A DNA stretch of 64,000 nt from Muribaculaceae bacterium (GCA_017547845.1 JAFYNZ010000026.1:1594-65593); one strand, 5' to 3'. Shown: positions 30,056-41,389, counted from the stretch's first letter. Made by a program: numbers and translations. The notes: generated by a model from the sequence alone, not told the origin.

Positions 30056-30838
30056 ATGGAGGAAATGTTCAAGCCTGAGGTCTTCAATATGGTGCTGATA
30101 ACGATGTCGGTGATGGCAGTGTTTGTCTTTGTGTGCCTGCTGAAGGTTGAAGCCGGTTATGGCGTGGCTTATACTAAGAAGTGGGGCCCGGCGGTCAATA
30201 ATAAGTTGGGCTGGGTGCTCATGGAGGCTCCGGCGTTTATCGCTATGGTGGTGTTGTGGCTGCTTAGCGATAGGGCGTGCGATGGGGTGAGGTGCACTAT
30301 GGCGGCGTTGTTTTTGTTTCACTATTTTCAGCGTTCGTTTGTGTTTCCGATGCTTATCAAGGGAAAGAGTGTGATGCCGTTGTCGGTGATTCTGATGGGT
30401 GTCACTTTCAATACGATTAATGCCTATATGTTGGCAGGTTGGCTTTTTTATGTGAGTCCTGCGGATTATTATGGGGGATGGTCGTGGCTTATGTCGCCGA
30501 TGTTTATCGTGGGACTTGCGGTGTTTGTCGCCGGCATGGCTATCAATTGGCATTCCGACTACATAATCCGTCACTTGCGTAAGCCGGGCGATACGGGGCA
30601 TTATATCCCACGCGGCGGAATGTTTCGCTATGTGACGAGTGCCAATTATTTGGGCGAGTTCATGGAGTGGTGTGGCTTTGCGTTGCTCACATGGTCGTGG
30701 GCGGGCGCAGTGTTTGCTTTGTGGACTTTTGCCAATCTTGCTCCTCGTGCTCGTAAGCTTCATCAGCGTTATGAACGCGAGTTTGGCGATGAATATAAGA
30801 AACTGAATAGAAGATATATACTACCATTTATATATTAA
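30056..30838 (+). CDS. 3-oxo-5-alpha-steroid 4-dehydrogenase (steroid 5-alpha-reductase family)
   Basis: GWVLMEAP, HYFQRS, INWHSDYI, IPRGGMFRYVTSANYLGE, NLAPRA motifs. Confidence 0.92.
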   Translation: MEEMFKPEVFNMVLITMSVMAVFVFVCLLKVEAGYGVAYTKKWGPAVNNKLGWVLMEAPAFIAMVVLWLLSDRACDGVRCTMAALFLFHYFQRSFVFPMLIKGKSVMPLSVILMGVTFNTINAYMLAGWLFYVSPADYYGGWSWLMSPMFIVGLAVFVAGMAINWHSDYIIRHLRKPGDTGHYIPRGGMFRYVTSANYLGEFMEWCGFALLTWSWAGAVFALWTFANLAPRARKLHQRYEREFGDEYKKLNRRYILPFIY

Positions 30839-30842
30839 GGAT

Positions 30843-32072
30843 ATGAAACTGTTTACTCCATATAAAATAGGACCGGTCGAGTTGCGTAATCGCACAATTC
30901 GCTCGGCGGCATTTGAAGGCATGGGTAAGGATAATGGTCCTACTCAGAAACTTCGCGACTATCATGTCAGCGTGGCTAAGGGTGGTGTCGGCATGACGAC
31001 TTTGGCTTATGCAAGTATCTGTGAATCAGGGTTGTCGTTTAAGACGCAGCTGTGGTTGCGTCCGCAGATTGTGCCTGAGTTGCGCAAGATCACCGATGAC
31101 ATACATGCTGCCGGAGCTAAGGCTTCGATTCAGATAGGCCATTGTGGCAATATGACTCACATGTCGACGGCGGGTTGCATACCTGTCGGTCCGTCGACGG
31201 GTTTTAATCTCTATTCTCCGACAATAGTCAGGGGGCTGAAGGCTGATGAGTTGCACACGTTGGCGTCGCAGTTTGGTGATGCTGTGGTGACGGCTCGCGA
31301 TGCCGGATTTGACTGCGTTGAGGTGCATGCCGGCCACGGCTATCTCATCTCTCAATTCCTCTCGCCTTACACCAATCGTCGTCGCGATGAGTTTGGCGGA
31401 ACGCTCGATAATCGTATGCGTTTCATGCGTATGTGTATGGAGGAGGTGATGAGGGCTGCCGGCAATGATATGGGCGTGCTTGTCAAGACCAATATGTGTG
31501 ACGGATTCAAGGGCGGGCTGGAGATAGATGACTGTCTGACAGTGGCTAAGGAACTTGAGAACCTTGGCGCACATGCCATCGTTTTGTCGGGTGGCTTTGT
31601 GAGCAAGGCGCCGATGTATGTGATGCGTGGCGAGATGCCTATCTATACGATGACTCACTATATGAAGCAGTTGTGGCTCAAATATGGCGTGCGTCTTGTC
31701 GGTAAGTATATGATTCCGAATGAGCCGTTTAAGGAACTCTATTTCTTAGATGATGCTCGTCGATTCCGCAGCGAGTTGAAGTGTCCGTTGGTGTATGTCG
31801 GTGGGGCTGTGTCGCGTGAGGGTATCGACAAGGTGCTCGACGAGGGCTTTGAGTTTGTGCAGATGGGTCGTGCGTTAATCAATGACCCTGAATTTGTCAA
31901 TCATCTTCGTCAAGGAGCAGAGCGTTGCGACTGCGATCATGTCAACTACTGTATCGCTCGCATGTACTCGGAAGATATGGCATGTCATAAGCATTTGTGT
32001 AATCTTCCTCCTAAGATACTCAAGGAGATAGAGCAAATCAAGCGTAGAGATGAGCAACAAAATCGTCGCTAA
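30843..32072 (+). CDS. NADH:flavin oxidoreductase (Old Yellow Enzyme family), putative steroid 5-beta-reductase
   Basis: LRNRTIRSA, QIGHCG, EVHAGHGYLISQFLSP, RDEFGG, GRALINDP. Confidence 0.88.
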   Translation: MKLFTPYKIGPVELRNRTIRSAAFEGMGKDNGPTQKLRDYHVSVAKGGVGMTTLAYASICESGLSFKTQLWLRPQIVPELRKITDDIHAAGAKASIQIGHCGNMTHMSTAGCIPVGPSTGFNLYSPTIVRGLKADELHTLASQFGDAVVTARDAGFDCVEVHAGHGYLISQFLSPYTNRRRDEFGGTLDNRMRFMRMCMEEVMRAAGNDMGVLVKTNMCDGFKGGLEIDDCLTVAKELENLGAHAIVLSGGFVSKAPMYVMRGEMPIYTMTHYMKQLWLKYGVRLVGKYMIPNEPFKELYFLDDARRFRSELKCPLVYVGGAVSREGIDKVLDEGFEFVQMGRALINDPEFVNHLRQGAERCDCDHVNYCIARMYSEDMACHKHLCNLPPKILKEIEQIKRRDEQQNRR

Positions 32073-32865
32073 AAAGTCGTTGCGAGCCGTGGTGACCGGT
32101 GCGAGTTCGGGCATAGGTCTCGAATTTTGCCGTCGTCTCGCCGAGATGGGTCACAACCTTGTGATGGTGAGCAATCAGGAAAGCGAGTTGATACGCTATG
32201 GTGCTGAAATATCGCAGAAACATGGTGTCGAAGTGTCGACCTATGCGCTCGACTTGACGGAGGAGAATGCAGCGTCGAAGTTGCTTTATTTCTTGTCGTC
32301 GCACAATTTGGTGGCAGATATTCTCATCAATAATGCGGGTATCTTCTCGTTTAACGAGGTGCTTGAGACGCCGATGCAGAAGATAAATCTGTTTACGGAC
32401 CTACATATCAAGTCGATGACCGAACTATGCTGGTATTTCGGTCGCGAGATGCGCAGCAGAGGGGGTGGCTACATTCTCAACATGTCGTCGATGTCGTGCT
32501 GGATGCCGATGCCGGGCATTGCGATGTATTCGGCTACGAAGGCCTATATCCGTGTCTTCTCTCGCGCGTTGCATTATGAACTGAAGGACAGCGGTGTGAG
32601 TGTGACAGTGGCTTGTCCGGGTGGAATAGCGACCGACCTTTTCGGTCTGCCTGCGCATCTGAAGAAACTTGCTGTCAGACTGGGTGTGCTCGACACGGCA
32701 GAGTCTTTTACACGCAAGGCAGTGAAGCAGATGTTTCGCCGTCGTCAGCAGTATATCAATGGTTGGCTCAACCGTTTCTCGATATTCTTTATCGGTGTAA
32801 TGCCGACATCGGTCAGAATGCTGGTGAAGCATAAATTGTTGGACAAAAACATACGCAAGCCATGA
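32050..32865 (+). CDS. Short-chain dehydrogenase/reductase, putative 3-beta-HSDH
   Basis: TGASSGIG, NNAG, YSATK; overlaps the upstream gene. Confidence 0.85.
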   Translation: MSNKIVAKKSLRAVVTGASSGIGLEFCRRLAEMGHNLVMVSNQESELIRYGAEISQKHGVEVSTYALDLTEENAASKLLYFLSSHNLVADILINNAGIFSFNEVLETPMQKINLFTDLHIKSMTELCWYFGREMRSRGGGYILNMSSMSCWMPMPGIAMYSATKAYIRVFSRALHYELKDSGVSVTVACPGGIATDLFGLPAHLKKLAVRLGVLDTAESFTRKAVKQMFRRRQQYINGWLNRFSIFFIGVMPTSVRMLVKHKLLDKNIRKP

Positions 32866-33626
32866 CACCGGTCTTCACAGGATTTTATCTGCTGACCGGT
32901 GCGACAGGTGCAATCGGCAAGGAGATAGCACGCGACTTGGCTTCGAAGGGAGAGAAGTTGATACTCGCTGTGCGCAACATGGATAAAGCCAACGAACTCC
33001 GTGAAGAGTTGCTCAGAGACTATCCGCAGTGTCAAACGATAGAGACGCTGAAACTTGATTTGGCTGACGAGCAGTCGGTCAGAGATGCTGTCGAGACGCT
33101 TGACTGCCGGCATATAGGTGGGCTGAAAGGTGTTATCAACAATGCCGGGGTGATGAGTCGTCGCTATGGCGTTGACTCGCAAGGGAGAGAGCTGACCATG
33201 GCCGTAAACTATTGCAACACGCGTCTGCTGGTGGAGCGGCTCAAGGATAGAGTGGAGACCGGGGGCGTGATAGTCTTTACAACATCGTTGACACGCTTCT
33301 TACATCGTCGCAAGGACTATCCTATCAGATTTGAAGCCAAGAGATTCTCGCAATTAGGCACCTACGGGCAGTCGAAGCGCATGATAACAGAGTATGCGCG
33401 TCAATTGGCAGTGGAGTTAAAGGGCAGAGTAAGAGTGAATTGTGCCGACCCGGGCATCGTCGATACAGGCATGATTTCGATGCAACGATGGTATGACCCG
33501 ATAGCCGATGCGCTTTTCCGTCCGTTCATACGCAGTCCACGCCAAGGAGCAGAGCCTGCATTGAGAGCGACATATGCTGAGGCGAGTGGCAAAATCTATT
33601 GCCGCCGTCGCATTCATGAGATATAA
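32862..33626 (+). CDS. Short-chain dehydrogenase/reductase (retinol-dehydrogenase-like)
   Basis: TGATGAIG, NNAG, YGQSK; ATGA overlap with the upstream gene. Confidence 0.85.
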   Translation: MTPVFTGFYLLTGATGAIGKEIARDLASKGEKLILAVRNMDKANELREELLRDYPQCQTIETLKLDLADEQSVRDAVETLDCRHIGGLKGVINNAGVMSRRYGVDSQGRELTMAVNYCNTRLLVERLKDRVETGGVIVFTTSLTRFLHRRKDYPIRFEAKRFSQLGTYGQSKRMITEYARQLAVELKGRVRVNCADPGIVDTGMISMQRWYDPIADALFRPFIRSPRQGAEPALRATYAEASGKIYCRRRIHEI

Positions 33627-34523: not shown

Positions 34524-34555
34524 TTTGCGTGTTTCAATAAATCATTGTAACTTTG
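34524..34555 (+). promoter_or_regulatory. Canonical host -33/-7 promoter upstream of the capsid module
   Basis: TTTG-N20-TAACTTTG, about 50 nt upstream of ATG 34606. Confidence 0.7.
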
Positions 34556-34605
34556 CATTGTCTTAATCAAATGAGACGCGAATTAAGTAATATCTTATTT
34601 AAATT

Positions 34606-35157
34606 ATGGAAAAGAATCAAACTGAAAAATTGGTGACCAATGTGTCATCTGATGTACTGACTGACGAGCGTAATTGTTGTGGCGGGGTGCAGTCGGGAGA
34701 GTGTAGTGAAGCCCATGATGAGGCAAGTGAAATCAATGGTATGGTCGATGAGGTGAAGCTGTCTTTCGTAGATGAGGCGGAGGTGCAATCAGGTGCTGAA
34801 GTTGCAGTGAAGACAGATGATGTCGGCGACAGTAGCGGTGCAGATGCTGACAGTGTAGAAAACTCAGAATCAGCGATAAATTGCGATGCAGAGTTCGGTG
34901 ATCTCAACGATGTTGTCGGTGAAAGAGTGTCTAAGGAGGAGATCGGGAAGAGCGACGGTGTGAAACTGGTTTATACGCAGGCAGATGTGGAGCGACTGAT
35001 CGGCGAGGCGTATTTGCGAGGACGCAACGAGGCTGTCGAGCGCAAGATTCGTCAAGACTCATCGCTTGGTCTGGGTGGTCGCAGAAAGGATCGCGTCGGA
35101 CTCGAGCGATATATCGTAGGTCGCCCATCGGTGTGGCAAGATAGAAATCAATTGTAG
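34606..35157 (+). CDS. Acidic hypothetical protein, putative capsid scaffolding protein
   Basis: Very D/E-rich with a helical C-terminus (ADVERLIGEAYLRGRNEAVERKI); directly upstream of the capsid gene. Confidence 0.45.
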   Translation: MEKNQTEKLVTNVSSDVLTDERNCCGGVQSGECSEAHDEASEINGMVDEVKLSFVDEAEVQSGAEVAVKTDDVGDSSGADADSVENSESAINCDAEFGDLNDVVGERVSKEEIGKSDGVKLVYTQADVERLIGEAYLRGRNEAVERKIRQDSSLGLGGRRKDRVGLERYIVGRPSVWQDRNQL

Positions 35158-35269
35158 TATAGAAAAATATTGAATGCATTGAAAAGATAGGACAGGAGTA
35201 TTATTGAAAATCAGCGATAATATCAGCAAACAAACAACTTTATTTATTCACTTAAACAAGTTTTTATTT

Positions 35270-36487
35270 ATGGAAAATCAAAGAAATCATTTGACAGATG
35301 GTGTGAGCAATGGTACACACCTCAGCGGCTTGCCGTTGACAACTGAGATTGCCGACATTGCGGCACCGGGCTTATTGACCAATGCCATCGACAAGGCGGT
35401 GGTGAAGATTCGTCCGATGGCGACACCGATCGACCAAATCAGCCGCATGGGACATGTGCGCAGTGTGGACTCAATGGATGTGGACTACTATTCGGTCGAT
35501 ACACGCGTCGACAGCGATAGCGTCTTGTCGGCTGTGGAGTCATCGGAGTCGACTGACGGCAATCCTCTCTACCTTTTGACGGTGGCTCATCCATCGCGTT
35601 TTGAGGCTACAGAGACCTTTGCCTATGGAGAGAGTGGTGTGGAAAATGTCGGTTATGTGGTGGAGAAAAATGCCGATGGCACATTGCTTTGTGCCTCAGT
35701 GAAGGGTGACTTGTCCGACCTTTCGTCGGGTGGTCGTATCATCCGTATGGGACGCGCTGCGACACAACTTGATGTGCAGTCGCCACAGTTCTCGGCATTG
35801 CCGGTGAAGAACACCAACTATTGCCAAATCTTCAAGATGCAGATTGAGCAGTCGGTGGTGATGAAACTCAGTCACAAGGAGATCGGTTGGGATTTCACCG
35901 ACCAGCAGGAAGCGGCGGTCTACGATATGCGTATGGGTATGGAGAAGCAATTCCTTTTCGGCAAGAAGGCGAAGGTCTACGATCCACGCAAGCAGGAGAC
36001 GGTGAAATTCACAGGTGGCATATGGGACCAGGCCGGCAAGGATATCGATGTCAGTCTTGAGGACTTCGATTCTCGAGCGTTGGTCGACTTGCTTCGCAAT
36101 GCGTTCACCGATAACTCCGGCAGTCGTCGCAAGGTGCTTGTGGCAGGCTCGGAATTGATAACGGCACTCAATCGTATCGAGAACACACATGTCATTACGG
36201 CTCGCGACCAAGTGACAGCGTGGGGTATCGACTTTTCAGAATTGCAATCGAAATTCGGACGCCTCTATGTGGTCTTCTCCGATATTTTCGATGTGATGGG
36301 TATGCCGGGCAATGGTATAATCATCGATCCGGAATATATCCAGAAGCATGTGTTCATTCCGTTCAATGCCGAGCGACTCGACCTCAGAGGTAGCGGTCAG
36401 CGCAATACAGAGGCTATGGTATTGACCGAGGCGAGCTGTCTGACACTCCGTTACCCTGACGCACATGCTCGAGTGATCGGTGCATAG
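35270..36487 (+). CDS. Major capsid protein-like (DUF5309/SU10-type, HK97 fold)
   Basis: IRPMATPIDQI, NYCQIF, DMRMGMEKQFLFG, FTGGI, WGIDF...SKFGRL, EASCLTLRYPDAH follow the N-arm/spine-helix/P-domain pattern; ATG 35270 follows an AT-rich leader. Confidence 0.75.
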   Translation: MENQRNHLTDGVSNGTHLSGLPLTTEIADIAAPGLLTNAIDKAVVKIRPMATPIDQISRMGHVRSVDSMDVDYYSVDTRVDSDSVLSAVESSESTDGNPLYLLTVAHPSRFEATETFAYGESGVENVGYVVEKNADGTLLCASVKGDLSDLSSGGRIIRMGRAATQLDVQSPQFSALPVKNTNYCQIFKMQIEQSVVMKLSHKEIGWDFTDQQEAAVYDMRMGMEKQFLFGKKAKVYDPRKQETVKFTGGIWDQAGKDIDVSLEDFDSRALVDLLRNAFTDNSGSRRKVLVAGSELITALNRIENTHVITARDQVTAWGIDFSELQSKFGRLYVVFSDIFDVMGMPGNGIIIDPEYIQKHVFIPFNAERLDLRGSGQRNTEAMVLTEASCLTLRYPDAHARVIGA

Positions 36488-36501
36488 TGTTCCCAATAGT
36501 T

Positions 36502-36533
36502 GTGGCGACTATGTCGTCGGGCGTTGTCGCCAC
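36502..36533 (+). terminator. GC-rich hairpin after the capsid gene (stabiliser or partial terminator)
   Basis: gtggcgac...gtcgccac stem with no long T tail. Confidence 0.5.
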
Positions 36534-36629
36534 GGCTTACCTTCTTCTTACGCGACTTTTAGATTGTATTACGAGGGAGCATCTGCCAATTCCTTTATTC
36601 TTGCTCCCTAAAAATTAATGTAACTGACT

Positions 36630-37160
36630 ATGATTAAACAATTTAGTGAAGATGAAATGCTCCGTATATGGCGTGATAGGGCGGGCTATGTCGATGCAAG
36701 ATGCGACTGCGTGGTGGAGTATGTCGACGGTGTTGATAACGACCGTCGGTTGCTTGCCGACATCAGGCGATGGTATGCCGACTTGCTACTGAATGCCCCG
36801 GTTGACCTATTGCCGACCGAAAATCTTGCCACGGAGGCAACGGTAACAAAGATAAGCGACCATAGTGCTCGCATCGACTTGCCATCGCGAGGCGTGAGAC
36901 TGCTCGGGCTACGCTTCAAAGGCGAGGAGCAAGAGGTGACGACATTTTACAGTCCCGGTTCAAGAGTGGAGCGTCTATACAGCGATCCGAGCGTGAGGAT
37001 GTACAGCCGTCAGATTGCTATCGCCTATGGGCGTAGTGTGGAAGTTGTCGGTGGGAAATGTGACGAATTGCTATCGTTGCGCATGGTGGCAAATCCTAAG
37101 GATGGCGCGTTTGTGTTTGACGAGTCGTTGTTGCCACGACTCATAGATATGGAGCGATGA
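36630..37160 (+). CDS. Hypothetical protein, possible head-tail adaptor
   Basis: 176 aa; helical start followed by a beta-rich region; position after the capsid gene. Confidence 0.35.
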   Translation: MIKQFSEDEMLRIWRDRAGYVDARCDCVVEYVDGVDNDRRLLADIRRWYADLLLNAPVDLLPTENLATEATVTKISDHSARIDLPSRGVRLLGLRFKGEEQEVTTFYSPGSRVERLYSDPSVRMYSRQIAIAYGRSVEVVGGKCDELLSLRMVANPKDGAFVFDESLLPRLIDMER

Positions 37161-37540
37161 GGTGGGTGGCAATCTTGACTGCAGTCGTGATGTTTGTCGG
37201 TTGTCGCCCGAGTGTGGAGGTGGTCGAGAGGGTGAGATATGACACATTGCTCGTGATGAGTCGCCATAGCGACACGATAGTCAACGCCGACAGTGTGATA
37301 ATCCGTGAGCGTCTGCGTGGCGACACGTTGCTGATAGAGAAGGAGCGAATCATCAGGCGTGAACGCATAAGAACAGTGTGCGACACTATCCGCGAGCATC
37401 GAGTCGACTCAGTGCCTGTGGTGGTCGCAGCGACCACTGCGACTGATAACCATAGGGGAAACGATAACCTTTGGACAGTGGTGATAGTCGGACTCGTTGT
37501 GGGACTGATACTATTAATGATAAACAGGATAAGAAATTGA
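37157..37540 (+). CDS. Putative unimolecular spanin (lipoprotein with C-terminal TM)
   Basis: N-terminal lipobox FVGC, beta-rich DT/DS repeats, C-terminal TM LWTVVIVGLVVGLILLMI followed by basic residues. Confidence 0.6.
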   Translation: MRWVAILTAVVMFVGCRPSVEVVERVRYDTLLVMSRHSDTIVNADSVIIRERLRGDTLLIEKERIIRRERIRTVCDTIREHRVDSVPVVVAATTATDNHRGNDNLWTVVIVGLVVGLILLMINRIRN

Positions 37541-38991
37541 TGGATAATATATTAGACAAAGATAGCGCATTGCTGAAGGTGGCAATGCAAGCGTGGGAGT
37601 CGCTCGAGATGCTGCGTCAACGACGCCGAAGATTGAAGGGGTTTGCTTATGGTCGACAATGGTGCGACATGGTGCGCGACTCTCAAGGACGAGTGATGAG
37701 CGAAGAGCAATATCTGATAGAGAATGGGCGTGTGCCGATCACCAACAATCTGATACGCCAACTTGTGAAGAGCATCGTGGGGCGTTATCGCTATATGGCA
37801 GCCAAGGCTGATGGAGAGGAACTCGCTCAAATGCTCAGCCGCAAGTCGGAAGCCGGAGTCAGGTCGCTTGATGACTATGACGCAAGAGCGCTCGAAGAGT
37901 TCTTGATATCGGGGTGTGTGGTGCAACGCATCAGTGATGAGGTAGGGCATGGTGCAGGGGTAGAAAATGTCAGCCCTGAACGCATCTTTCTCCATCGTCT
38001 TGATGGCTCGTCGGCCGGTGGCAATAGATTGATAGGTGTGTTGCACGATATGCCGTTGACGACAATGTTGCAGCGATTTGGCGATGGGACAGTAGAGCGT
38101 CATGAGGCTATCAAACGCCTCTATGCCGGCAAGGTTGGCGCGGTGAGGCCCTTGGGAGGAGAGTCGGCATCGATAGTGTTTTCGGAGCCGTCGCAAGCAG
38201 GGTGTTGCCGAGTGATAGAGGTGTGGGAATACTTGCCGAGCGAGTTGCTGCGATGCCACGACCGACGCAGTGCCGAGTATTTTGTGGAGGACTATAGTGA
38301 TGAGGTGATGGCGCGACTTGAGACGGAAAACAATCGTCGTCGCAAGACCGGCGAGCCGAGTGTCGACCATTATCTCGATATCACCGAGTCGTGGCGTTGC
38401 TCATGGCTTGCACCGAGTGGCGAAGTGCTGAGTCGCTATTGGGCTACCGGCAAGGAGAGTCATCCGTTTGTGACGCGATTCTATCCGCTGATAGATGGCG
38501 AGGTGCATTCGATGGTGGAAGATGTGGTCGATCAGCAGAAGTATGTCAATCGACTCATCTCGTTGCTCGACAGCGTGATAGCATCGTCGGCCAAGGGTGT
38601 GCTGCTTTACCCGACCGACCAGTTGCCAGAGGGGTTTACTTGGCGTGATATGCGTCGTATCTGGTCAAATCCGAGTGGTGTCTTGCCTTTCAAACGCACA
38701 TCGAAGACCGTGATGCCTCATCAAGTTCACTCAAGCGGATCGTCGTCGGGTGCTTCCGAAATGCTTCGTCTGCAACTCGAACTGTTTGACGAGATTTCGG
38801 GCACTACCGGGGCATTGCGTGGCAAAAGTTCGCACGCCACCGGGGCAGAAATGCTGCACACCGAGTTGGAAAACGGCACAATATCGATGCTCGATATGCT
38901 GGCATCGTTTCGTGCGTTTATCGACGAGCGAAATGCTCGCTTGAGATGTGTCAATAGTGATATAAACCGTAATAACTGTCAAGAATTATGA
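37540..38991 (+). CDS. Portal protein-like (P22/podovirus type)
   Basis: YGRQW, GRVPITNNLIRQLVKSIVG, RVIEVW, HPFV..FYP.IDGEVHSMVEDVVDQQKYVNRLIS, FDEISG; TGATG overlap at 37538-37542. Confidence 0.75.
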   Translation: MDNILDKDSALLKVAMQAWESLEMLRQRRRRLKGFAYGRQWCDMVRDSQGRVMSEEQYLIENGRVPITNNLIRQLVKSIVGRYRYMAAKADGEELAQMLSRKSEAGVRSLDDYDARALEEFLISGCVVQRISDEVGHGAGVENVSPERIFLHRLDGSSAGGNRLIGVLHDMPLTTMLQRFGDGTVERHEAIKRLYAGKVGAVRPLGGESASIVFSEPSQAGCCRVIEVWEYLPSELLRCHDRRSAEYFVEDYSDEVMARLETENNRRRKTGEPSVDHYLDITESWRCSWLAPSGEVLSRYWATGKESHPFVTRFYPLIDGEVHSMVEDVVDQQKYVNRLISLLDSVIASSAKGVLLYPTDQLPEGFTWRDMRRIWSNPSGVLPFKRTSKTVMPHQVHSSGSSSGASEMLRLQLELFDEISGTTGALRGKSSHATGAEMLHTELENGTISMLDMLASFRAFIDERNARLRCVNSDINRNNCQEL

Positions 38992-41078
38992 TGACATATT
39001 CAATGCAACTTGCTCGACATCAGCAAGGTAAACAATTCAGGCGCACTTCCGAAGGCGGGCTTCTTCCGCAGTGTGAAGGCGATGTCGCACTGTGTCAGAA
39101 TCTTAGAGAACTTGTCGCCGGCGAGTTGATGGCGACAGGCGTGCCGACTCAGGTGGTGGAGAGTGGCGATAGTGTGGTCGGTGTCGATGTCAGAGGCGAG
39201 ATAACCACCATATTTGTTGTCACCAATGCAGGCGAACTGAAGATAGCCGGCACGCTCGACTATCGCAACGAGTTTACGGCATGCGGCGACATCATCGGTG
39301 AGCCACGACAAGGCATCAAGGGGTGTGCATCGGTCGGAGCGTTTGTGGCGTTTCTGCTCGACGACGGCAGTCTCTACTATCTGCTGTGGGACTATGACTT
39401 GCTGTGCTACAGGACGCTTGGAGCGTTGCCCGGCGTGCCCGATGTGACGATAGACACGGTCGACCGGACGGAGTTCACGACTACGGTCGAGGGGGTGACA
39501 TTCAAGGAGGCTGTGGCAGATATGCGTAGTGGCGTGCCGTCGGAAGTGACTGCTCAGGTCGGTAAAAAACTTGAGGAGGCATGGCAAAAGGTGGTCGAGC
39601 AGGCTCATGGTGCAGGATTGTGGGTGCAACCTGCGGAAGTGATGCTTGTCTATCGCATGTGGGACGGACAGATATTACACACGACTGCCCCCGCGACAGT
39701 CGGGGTGGGCTATCAAGGCTACGACCGTCTGTCGGTGCCATTGCGTTTTGATGCAACTCAAGGCTTTGTGGGCACATCTGATGTGTCTATGCGAGTGAAG
39801 GGCTATCGCATTTCGGTCAATGCCGAGCGGATAGCATCTCACTGGAGTGATGTGATAGCACAAGTAGAGGTATGGGTGAGCCGAGAGCAAGAGGTGGTCA
39901 TGGTCGGAGCGTTGCCGGCGATGAGTCAGACGCAGTCGGGTAGCAACTATTATCTATCGACATTCTTACCGACCTACCCTCAAGAGGATATGCAAGCAGG
40001 ACTGAGTTTCTGCGAGATGGGCCGACACTCGTTTTATGACTCGGATATGGCATTGCAGACTTCACTGACGAGGACCGGCAAAGTCACTTACAGTGCAGTG
40101 CGTCCTGTGGCGAGCAAACTGACTGAGAGGGTGGATTGTCTGCATGGCAGGGGCGACTTTCTGCATGTGGTCAAAGGATTGAGTCTGACGACAATGCGTC
40201 GCGGCAATCCGTTGTCGGTGATGTCGACGACGGAAAGTGTCGGTGGTAAGGTCTACGCTATGGCATCGCAGTGCATCGGTGGTGGTGCCTATACGCGTCA
40301 GTTTGTCTATCTGTTCACCGACCACGGCATCGTGGCATTGACACACAAGGCTGATGGCAGTCATGCCAATTGTCGTGTCATTTCGCCTGCCGTTGTCGCC
40401 GGTGCAGCACTGGTAGCGACCACATCGTCGGGGGTGTATGCTTTGTCGGTCGATGGGACGCTATTGTTGATTCGCGATGCCAAGGTCCACACCTTGCTCA
40501 CGGGACTCAGCGAGTGTCGACAACTTGGTTGGAACGCTTGTCTCAACGAGTTGTGGCTCGTGCCTGATGCCGATCCGGAATCGTGGCAAGTGTCGATAGT
40601 CTTGCAGATATATATGGACTATCGGGCATATCTGTCGACCATTATTCCGCAGAAGATAGTGTCGTCTGACGGCCTATTGCTATATGAGCAACGTGTCGGC
40701 GATAGAGTGCAACTGATGAATCTATCGGATGAAGATGTCGACCGAGCGCATCGACCGCAGTGTCGCTGGCTTTCATCAGTAGTGGAGTTTGATCGTCGTG
40801 AGCGACCGGTGAGACTTGATGTCGGACTTTCGGGCGACGATGTCTGTACGACAATCTCTGTGATACGCCATCAGGGGTGGTCAAGAGGCTCGGAGAGCGG
40901 CTTGCCCTTGATGACGGCTACAGTCGAGGGAAAAGTCTGTCGCCCGATAGCGTTGAGGGCATTGCCGGGTGCCAAATCGTTGGTGTCGTGCCGAGAGCCG
41001 CTGCGCTGTAGTGTGTCGGTTTGTGGACGCTTTGATTCGTTGATGGGGTTGCGATTTGATACGCGAGTATCGCCGTAG
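38988..41078 (+). CDS. Hypothetical beta-rich protein, possible tail nozzle/stabilisation protein
   Basis: 696 aa; ATGA overlap with the portal gene; EGDVALCQNLR start and propeller-like segments (FVYLFTDHGIVAL). Confidence 0.35.
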   Translation: MMTYSMQLARHQQGKQFRRTSEGGLLPQCEGDVALCQNLRELVAGELMATGVPTQVVESGDSVVGVDVRGEITTIFVVTNAGELKIAGTLDYRNEFTACGDIIGEPRQGIKGCASVGAFVAFLLDDGSLYYLLWDYDLLCYRTLGALPGVPDVTIDTVDRTEFTTTVEGVTFKEAVADMRSGVPSEVTAQVGKKLEEAWQKVVEQAHGAGLWVQPAEVMLVYRMWDGQILHTTAPATVGVGYQGYDRLSVPLRFDATQGFVGTSDVSMRVKGYRISVNAERIASHWSDVIAQVEVWVSREQEVVMVGALPAMSQTQSGSNYYLSTFLPTYPQEDMQAGLSFCEMGRHSFYDSDMALQTSLTRTGKVTYSAVRPVASKLTERVDCLHGRGDFLHVVKGLSLTTMRRGNPLSVMSTTESVGGKVYAMASQCIGGGAYTRQFVYLFTDHGIVALTHKADGSHANCRVISPAVVAGAALVATTSSGVYALSVDGTLLLIRDAKVHTLLTGLSECRQLGWNACLNELWLVPDADPESWQVSIVLQIYMDYRAYLSTIIPQKIVSSDGLLLYEQRVGDRVQLMNLSDEDVDRAHRPQCRWLSSVVEFDRRERPVRLDVGLSGDDVCTTISVIRHQGWSRGSESGLPLMTATVEGKVCRPIALRALPGAKSLVSCREPLRCSVSVCGRFDSLMGLRFDTRVSP

Positions 41079-41160
41079 TCAATGCAGAAAAACCGACAAA
41101 AAAGCGTAATATTAGCATTTATTAACAGATGAGTGCAAAAAGACGGCATTGCAAGCATCG

Positions 41161-41168
41161 TATCTTTG
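41161..41168 (+). promoter_or_regulatory. -7 element TATCTTTG
   Basis: Consensus match about 130 nt upstream of a small ORF. Confidence 0.55.
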
Positions 41169-41296
41169 CACTGTCAAACGATAGCAACGCTCTCAGACGA
41201 CTCAGGTTGAAGGAGACAGTCTCGACAAGAGTAGCGACCGGAACTTGCTTCGTCGGACACAATAGACGAATTTACAAACTTCTAAAATATAATCGT

Positions 41297-41389
41297 ATGA
41301 AAAAGCGTGTTCCATTCTCGTTGGTGTTGGTTTACCTCATGGGTGCCACAGTGTTGTTGCTCAATCTTAAGAACTATATTTTGTATTAA
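41297..41389 (+). CDS. 30-aa hydrophobic small protein
   Basis: MKKRVPFSLVLVYLMGATVLLLNLKNYILY; AT-rich translation leader, own promoter element and downstream hairpin. Confidence 0.45.
   Translation: MKKRVPFSLVLVYLMGATVLLLNLKNYILY

Follow-up and report, generated by a model that had tools for sequence, protein, structure and literature searches.

We combine profile searches, structure prediction and a phylogenetic analysis to study a block of phage-type genes in the genome of a Muribaculaceae bacterium (G000 below), contained in a 64,000-nt stretch of DNA that we refer to as the window. Six intact open reading frames (ORFs) lie in one orientation between positions 34606 and 41078 and encode, in order, a putative scaffold-like protein, an SU10-type capsid protein, a predicted head-to-tail adaptor, a lipoprotein, a P22-type portal and a predicted tail nozzle (Table 1). 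The last four genes are coupled through overlapping stops and starts (ATGA at 37157, TGATG at 37540 and ATGA at 38988). The promoter in front of the block belongs to a motif class with 8 matches in the window against 0.31 expected, and the region that holds the hairpin behind the capsid gene (36480-36635) folds with a free energy of -46.8 kcal/mol (z = -3.89; 0 of 200 shuffled sequences are as stable). The hairpin is probably an attenuator or stabiliser that would set capsid stoichiometry. An original prediction, made from the sequence alone, had described these intact co-oriented ORFs together with their coupling, promoter and hairpin, and each of these features is confirmed here.

Table 1. 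Coordinates of the features at the two loci in G000. Positions refer to the window unless contig C17 is named; aa, amino acids.
Feature	Position	Strand	Description	Basis
Promoter	34524..34555	+	Bacteroidota-type housekeeping promoter, TTTG-N20-TAACTTTG; about 50 nt 5' of o1	Motif search
o1	34606..35157	+	Acidic, putatively scaffold-like protein, 183 aa	Position and C-terminal motif
Capsid	35270..36487	+	Major capsid protein, SU10/DUF5309 type, 405 aa	PF17236 2.1e-47, phrog_26635 4e-75
Hairpin	36498..36537	+	Stable hairpin inside the 142-nt gap 3' of the capsid gene	RNA fold
o3	36630..37160	+	Predicted head-to-tail adaptor, 176 aa	AlphaFold and Foldseek
o4	37157..37540	+	Lipoprotein (lipobox FVGC) with C-terminal transmembrane helix, 127 aa	Sequence
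Portal	37540..38991	+	P22-like portal, short form, 483 aa	PF16510 1.7e-10, phrog_156 1.7e-21
o6	38988..41078	+	Predicted tail nozzle (T7 gp12 / SU10 / P22 gp10 type), 696 aa	AlphaFold and Foldseek
c143	C17 4583-5014		143-aa protein	
TerL	C17 5054-6553		Large terminase	phrog_2; 51% identical to TerL of congener G006
cc117	C17 6575-6928		117 aa, N-terminal transmembrane segment and coiled coil, Rz-like	Weak match
Endolysin	C17 6925-7344		Amidase_2 endolysin	phrog_822 2.6e-61

The DUF5309/SU10-type capsid and the P22-type portal, which had first been recognised from motifs, both hold up in profile searches. The capsid scores 162.5 bits against SU10_MCP (PF17236), for which the Pfam gathering cut-off is 24.1, and the portal scores 40.5 bits against P22_portal (PF16510; cut-off 26.1); this second match covers profile positions 200-403 only, and the phrog_156 match spans most of the portal protein. 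The ATG at 35270 is the more likely start of the capsid gene, over an alternative TTG at 35204, and 37540 is the more likely start of the portal gene. Neither Pfam nor PHROGs holds a family for o1, o3, o4 or o6. For o3 and o6 we built alignments from relatives, modelled the proteins with AlphaFold and searched the models with Foldseek, a structural check that had been proposed for all six proteins. The o3 model (predicted local distance difference test score, pLDDT, 87.7) has as its top matches podophage neck and adaptor chains, namely those of crAss001 (7qoj_D, E-value 4e-4, TM-score 0.50), Carin-1, SU10 (7z47_A/B) and A4, and by this modelled fold o3 is a podophage head-to-tail adaptor. For the o6 model (pLDDT 87.9) the best 19 matches are all podophage nozzle or tail-tube chains, among them those of A4, Kp7, SU10, T7 gp12 and P22 gp10, with E-values of 1e-11 to 2e-7 and TM-scores of about 0.4; the predicted structure of o6 is that of a tail nozzle.

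A small ORF always stands directly before the capsid gene in relatives, and the family of small acidic proteins to which o1 belongs has the C-terminus GYLRGRNEA...R.SVWD in common. The protein encoded just 5' of the capsid gene in the Bacteroides phage BF1-TP2 has the same C-terminal end, and position and motif together suggest a scaffold-like role for o1. The protein o4 had been called a spanin. Its topology is indeed that of a unimolecular spanin, with a lipobox and a C-terminal transmembrane helix, and is the same in the closest congener, G075; the name describes this topology and nothing further. The o4 gene is placed between the adaptor and portal genes, away from the endolysin gene, and its product has no family match; homologues were found only in loci L013 (from G075) and L014, and o4 is a lineage-specific insert.

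The surroundings of the block are those of an ordinary chromosomal region, as had been supposed. The upstream neighbours (steroid 5-alpha-reductase, OYE and two SDR genes) and the downstream neighbours (NAD kinase, PdxJ and ExbB) are host genes, the GC content of the module is 0.53 compared with 0.50 for host genes, and its codon usage correlates with that of the host at 0.79, such that the composition and codon use of the module resemble those of the host.

One statement of the original prediction was that the block lacks terminase and endolysin genes. This is correct for the window, but both genes are present elsewhere in the same genome, and the search for an orphan terminase and endolysin that had been suggested recovers the two of them together. 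In the congener G006, the gene for the large terminase (TerL) comes after the nozzle gene; used as a query against the window's own genome, the G006 protein finds its homologue on contig C17. This second locus (L012) reads SufC-SufD-SufS, c143, TerL, cc117, Amidase_2 endolysin and three FKBP genes, with a host-type promoter 5' of the terminase genes, and G075 carries the same four genes, intact and in the same order, at a second locus of its own. The term 'minimal' for the operon was thus an overstatement, because packaging and lysis genes occupy a second locus. TerL matches phrog_2 at 7.5e-15 to 1e-18, and TerL of other genera matches T4 gp17 at 1e-8; the N-terminal ATPase domain of TerL retains the Walker A/B motifs, with KARQWGGST and the rest of the domain invariant across alignments. 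The protein c143 has no Pfam or PHROG family and reached 0.78 in an Atlas feature search, which is below the useful level. Between sufS and the promoter of this locus (L012:4200-4340) there are repeated ATAGA(T/C) units. Elsewhere in the family, in G056, a Peptidase_M15_3 gene of endolysin type stands directly 5' of a solitary portal gene (L109:5543-5941), so lysis enzymes of differing families have been joined to differing parts of the set across genera.

How widely is this gene set distributed? A profile of the capsid (A2) matches 358 of the 401 genomes in the family, from 34 of its 35 genera, and with few exceptions there is a single intact copy; among the genomes of high quality it matches 260 of 293. 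The portal profile (A3) is matched in 143 of 151 family genomes and in all 35 genera, the TerL profile in 139 of 151, and the nozzle profile (A5) in 73 of 81, the nozzle gene usually adjoining that for TerL. Most genera hold these genes dispersed at separate host-flanked loci, typically in three places (scaffold-like protein and capsid; portal, with or without adaptor; TerL and nozzle), and each dispersed locus has its own host-type -7 element. By eye, no regulatory motif beyond the general promoter is common to the regions upstream of the dispersed genes. The arrangement of loci is characteristic of each genus and differs among genera, from the two loci of G000 up to three or more in other genera; within the window's genus the particle genes are clustered, whether re-clustered or still clustered. 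At the level of the order, strong matches are found in Muribaculaceae and 6 further families, in every sampled genome of each, and in none of roughly 140 other Bacteroidales families. A scan of species-representative genomes yields 299 loci that encode relatives, nearly all titled Muribaculaceae or Bacteroidales.

The capsid protein itself comes in two forms. The ORF of most other genera is longer, at about 470 aa, and begins with an extension of about 55 aa that contains a hydrophobic helix (L102:5860-7269, L105:5995-7434 on the minus strand, L108:5857-7269, L111:5842-7278, and L117:5995-7401 and L120:5995-7401, both on the minus strand). In several cases the extension ends in a lipobox-like L-x-x-C, and a membrane-anchored or exported capsid would be odd. 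The extension is absent in the window's genus and in G047.

The pattern of descent follows that of the host. In a maximum-likelihood tree of 70 capsid sequences with 26 genus or family labels and two phage outgroups, all 26 labels are monophyletic, and the number of label changes is 25, the minimum possible, compared with a mean of 58 for shuffled labels. The ratio of nonsynonymous to synonymous substitution rates (dN/dS) of the capsid gene is 0.02-0.13 in 14 within-genus pairs, several of which have unsaturated dS values of 0.1-0.8, and is 0.037 between G000 and G075. For the other module genes the comparison of G000 with G075 has saturated dS and gives 0.14 for the portal, 0.21 for the nozzle, 0.27 for the adaptor, 0.30 for o1 and 0.47 for o4, the least constrained gene of the module; dS is likewise saturated for the genes on C17. 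Across the family, the homologues occur as single intact copies, evolve under purifying selection and agree with the host genera in their relationships, and the view that the block is domesticated and not in random decay gains accordingly from a near-universal capsid gene and a genus-congruent tree.

Relatives among viruses are few and distant. A phage collection contains three Bacteroides phages whose capsids are 35% identical, and IMG/VR (2.9 million viral contigs) contains one match at 29% identity, so that the viral collections hold capsid relatives of 29-35% identity only. The flanks of the loci examined contain no integrase, replication gene or repeat boundary. An early search with a single capsid sequence found relatives in 5 of 41 genomes (40 relatives having been added), which read as a patchy mobile element and was overturned by the profile search; differing flanks between species were likewise considered as a sign of mobility and dropped after the tree and the dispersed single-gene loci. 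Some family genomes hold, in addition, second and weaker portal matches (frames of about 650-670 aa) beside TerL matches of 700-760 aa (G057:C3:104104-107813, G143:C56, G067:C32, G105:C18, G176:C8, G180:C21 and G152:C8). These pairs have the appearance of genuine prophages, akin to the ancestor from which the domesticated set arose.

Taken together, there is little doubt that Muribaculaceae have domesticated the particle genes of a podophage. The loci in the window and on C17 have no integrase or replication genes, and the phage-derived genes are fixed in the host, vertically inherited and under purifying selection, as in gene transfer agents (GTAs) and other viriforms. Our reading, to which we assign a probability of about 0.6, is that the block supplies head, neck and nozzle, one half of a viriform that descends from an SU10/P22/T7-like podophage, is inherited vertically and probably serves to make GTA-like particles. 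A GTA-like particle is the most likely function, although as a claim of its own, drawn from gene content, it falls slightly short of even odds for the family and lower for the window's genus; it is favoured because the portal, adaptor, nozzle, linked lysis genes and, in most genera, a complete terminase have been retained. In such a system a host signal would cause a fraction of cells to express the set. The scaffold and capsid proteins would then build a procapsid on the portal, TerL would pump DNA into it, and the adaptor and nozzle would close the portal to form a very short tail. Finally, the amidase, with membrane proteins, would lyse the cell and release particles carrying host DNA.

Several observations weigh against this reading, in part for the family and in part for the window's genus. 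No clear small terminase (TerS) was identified, c143 being without a family match, and no tail fibre or receptor-binding protein was identified in the set. The adaptor, nozzle, o1 and o4 genes evolve fast (dN/dS 0.2-0.47, with dS saturated). In other genera TerL is 614-667 aa long and retains, in addition to the ATPase, the RNase-H-type nuclease motifs VDVGG..D, ESNT.E and HDD; in the window's genus its C-terminal domain lacks the catalytic residues and is hypervariable or deleted. Between G000 and G075 this domain is 26% identical compared with 79% for the ATPase domain, and the loss of the nuclease motifs makes headful cutting by this TerL doubtful. Furthermore, the capsid gene is absent in 17 of the 29 congeners, whose genomes are each at least 97% complete, and on the capsid tree the genus stands on a long branch. 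The original prediction had named patchiness among close relatives, dN/dS near 1 and near-identity to a complete prophage as outcomes that would count against it: capsid dN/dS is far below 1 and nothing near-identical was found among known phages and viral contigs, but in the window's genus the gene is indeed patchy (kept in 12 of 29 species). Finally, the TerL gene of G000 has an in-frame TAG at codon 85 (L012:5306-5308). The residue encoded there is Ser in G006, in G075 and in an intact conspecific cluster of 136 sequences that is 98% identical. Since the conspecific protein has Ser at this codon, the TAG is a strain-level change or an assembly error; recoding of TAG was considered and is unlikely, with Ser in relatives and conspecifics and TAG one base from TCG. 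Given the derived form of the genus and this TAG, the system in G000 may be weakened, changed in function or inactive in the strain.

The deletion of the TerL C-terminal domain is clean in some species of the genus, leaving a protein of 306-320 aa in which the conserved DF[FLI] tail is still present (L017:15341-16300, L018:15205-16167 and L021:15089-16009, and also P0021 and P0031-P0036 among others). Retention of this extreme C-terminus points to selection and not decay. Short forms that end in the last residues of the long form (DFF) are found repeatedly, across several species and numerous database clusters. Several congeners have a host peptidase U32 gene inserted on the opposite strand between the nozzle and TerL genes, namely G006 (L033:15335-16753) and those of loci L026-L029, where its position is the same; the G006 gene is 76% identical to the copy on contig C6 of the window genome, and a 203-aa ORF that we had considered at this place in G006 is its antisense strand.

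These points bear differently on the explanations that compete with a GTA-like viriform. The set could be domesticated and yet be something other than a DNA-transfer device, such as a phage-interference system, a PBSX-type killing particle or a protein or cargo shell, and this we hold to be unlikely, though not strongly so. Interference could be directed at BF1-TP2-like podophages through a decoy capsid, portal or scaffold, and the prophage-type portal/TerL pairs that circulate in the family provide something to interfere with. Conservation and vertical descent are compatible with any host function, no receptor-binding protein was found in the set, and in the window's genus the capsid, portal, adaptor and nozzle are intact although TerL is without nuclease motifs or without the entire C-terminal domain. 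Outside this genus, however, nearly all genera keep both the ATPase and the nuclease motifs of TerL, which is hard to explain without packaging; moreover, portal, adaptor and nozzle together make up a DNA channel, and lysis genes are linked to the set.

A somewhat less probable explanation is that the genes in the window genome or its genus are a relic on its way out, derived from the family system and no longer functional there. The TAG, the degenerate nuclease domain, the 17 congeners without a capsid gene and the long capsid branch are what such a relic would show. Against it, the six genes in the window and the other three genes on C17 are intact, purifying selection is evident in the comparison with G075 (capsid 0.037, portal 0.14), the conspecific TerL cluster is intact with Ser at codon 85, congeners share 79% identity in the TerL ATPase domain, and even the short TerL keeps DF[FLI]. 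The last explanation, a defective prophage remnant or a mobile satellite resembling a capsid-forming phage-inducible chromosomal island (cf-PICI), draws on the compact 6.5-10 kb block of structural genes, flanks unlike between species and the patchy spread of the single-sequence search, but is already largely refuted and very improbable, given that neither the window nor the related loci hold an integrase, att repeats or a replication or regulatory module, that most genera have dispersed single genes between host genes with one copy per genome in 34 of 35 genera, that the tree is fully congruent with genera under strong purifying selection, and that the set is almost absent among 2.9 million viral contigs.

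Two side observations concern the neighbourhood of the module. The upstream region at 30056-33626 is a tightly coupled operon for a steroid 5-alpha-reductase-like protein, an OYE flavin oxidoreductase and the two SDR proteins (Pfam assignments), and judging from these families its products may have bile acids or steroids as substrates. After the nozzle gene there is an 86-aa ORF at 41129-41389 with a -7-like element near 41160. Its gene-like part is the last 30 codons only (ATG at 41298), which encode a small hydrophobic peptide, MKKRVPFSLVLVYLMGATVLLLNLKNYILY, and this peptide may be a small membrane protein associated with the module.

In the guts of mice, ruminants and some humans, Muribaculaceae belong to the most abundant bacteria, and the majority have yet to be cultured. 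A particle system passed down vertically and present in almost all of them would open a major, so far unrecognised path for gene exchange or phage interference and, if particles are made, would contribute 'bacterial' DNA to virome preparations from the gut. With it, GTA-like domestication would reach into Bacteroidota and include podophages of the SU10/P22 type. The capsid, the portal and the TerL-nozzle pair can serve as markers for re-reading virome and transductomics data. To the family-wide picture this window adds the clustered, nuclease-less variant of one genus, its two-locus layout and signs of erosion; this variant is a natural experiment on what becomes of such a system once DNA cutting is lost. 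The fullest version of our reading, suggested by gene content and descent, is that of a previously undescribed podovirus-derived GTA made of scattered, single, host-wired genes, as old as the family, shared by Muribaculaceae and a few sister families, and with a nuclease-less packaging ATPase in the window's genus. We offer this version tentatively and think it less probable than not. If true, it would be the first GTA in Bacteroidota, and a TerL without a nuclease, in some species an ATPase domain and C-terminal tail only, would imply a changed mode of packaging or a changed cargo.

It remains to place the set among known systems. Our literature searches found no GTA or domesticated capsid in Bacteroidales or Muribaculaceae. 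The closest published analogue is FpGTA of Faecalibacterium prausnitzii, which is likewise a podovirus-like chromosomal set in a gut commensal. One of its two loci holds head and packaging genes and the second holds structural and lysis genes; genes for replication or integration are lacking, and almost the whole host clade carries the set (PMC12946183). FpGTA differs in that its host belongs to Bacillota, and we found no sequence relationship between the two sets. For FpGTA there are particles, proteomics, DNA of about 8.5-9 kb and candidate TerS, tail-fibre and receptor-binding protein genes (PMC12946183), whereas the Muribaculaceae set, with up to three or more single-gene loci and no fibre identified, is known from its genes alone. 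The nearest true viruses are phage SU10, whose adaptor and nozzle folds are shared with o3 and o6, and the Bacteroides temperate phages BF1-TP2, BKO1-TP3 and BS-TP4, whose capsids are 35% identical and of which BF1-TP2 has the upstream scaffold-like protein with the same C-terminal end. Unlike the Muribaculaceae set, these four are whole genomes, 64-68 kb in size, that encode regulation, lysis, fibres and replication; their portals are longer, and they are not vertically inherited host genes. The cf-PICIs and other satellites are also small islands with capsid, portal and head-tail connector genes of their own and no tails, but they have integrase, replication and regulatory genes and att sites and are patchy and horizontally acquired, none of which holds for the set described here. 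GTAs of the RcGTA type in Alphaproteobacteria are viriforms with a siphovirus-like long tail, an HK97-type capsid with its protease, and the regulators CtrA and GafA, in contrast to the podovirus ancestor of the Muribaculaceae set (SU10-type capsid, P22-type portal, T7-type adaptor and nozzle). The two nevertheless have in common that they are phage-derived, vertically inherited, under purifying selection, driven from host promoters, spread over several loci and incapable of propagating themselves.

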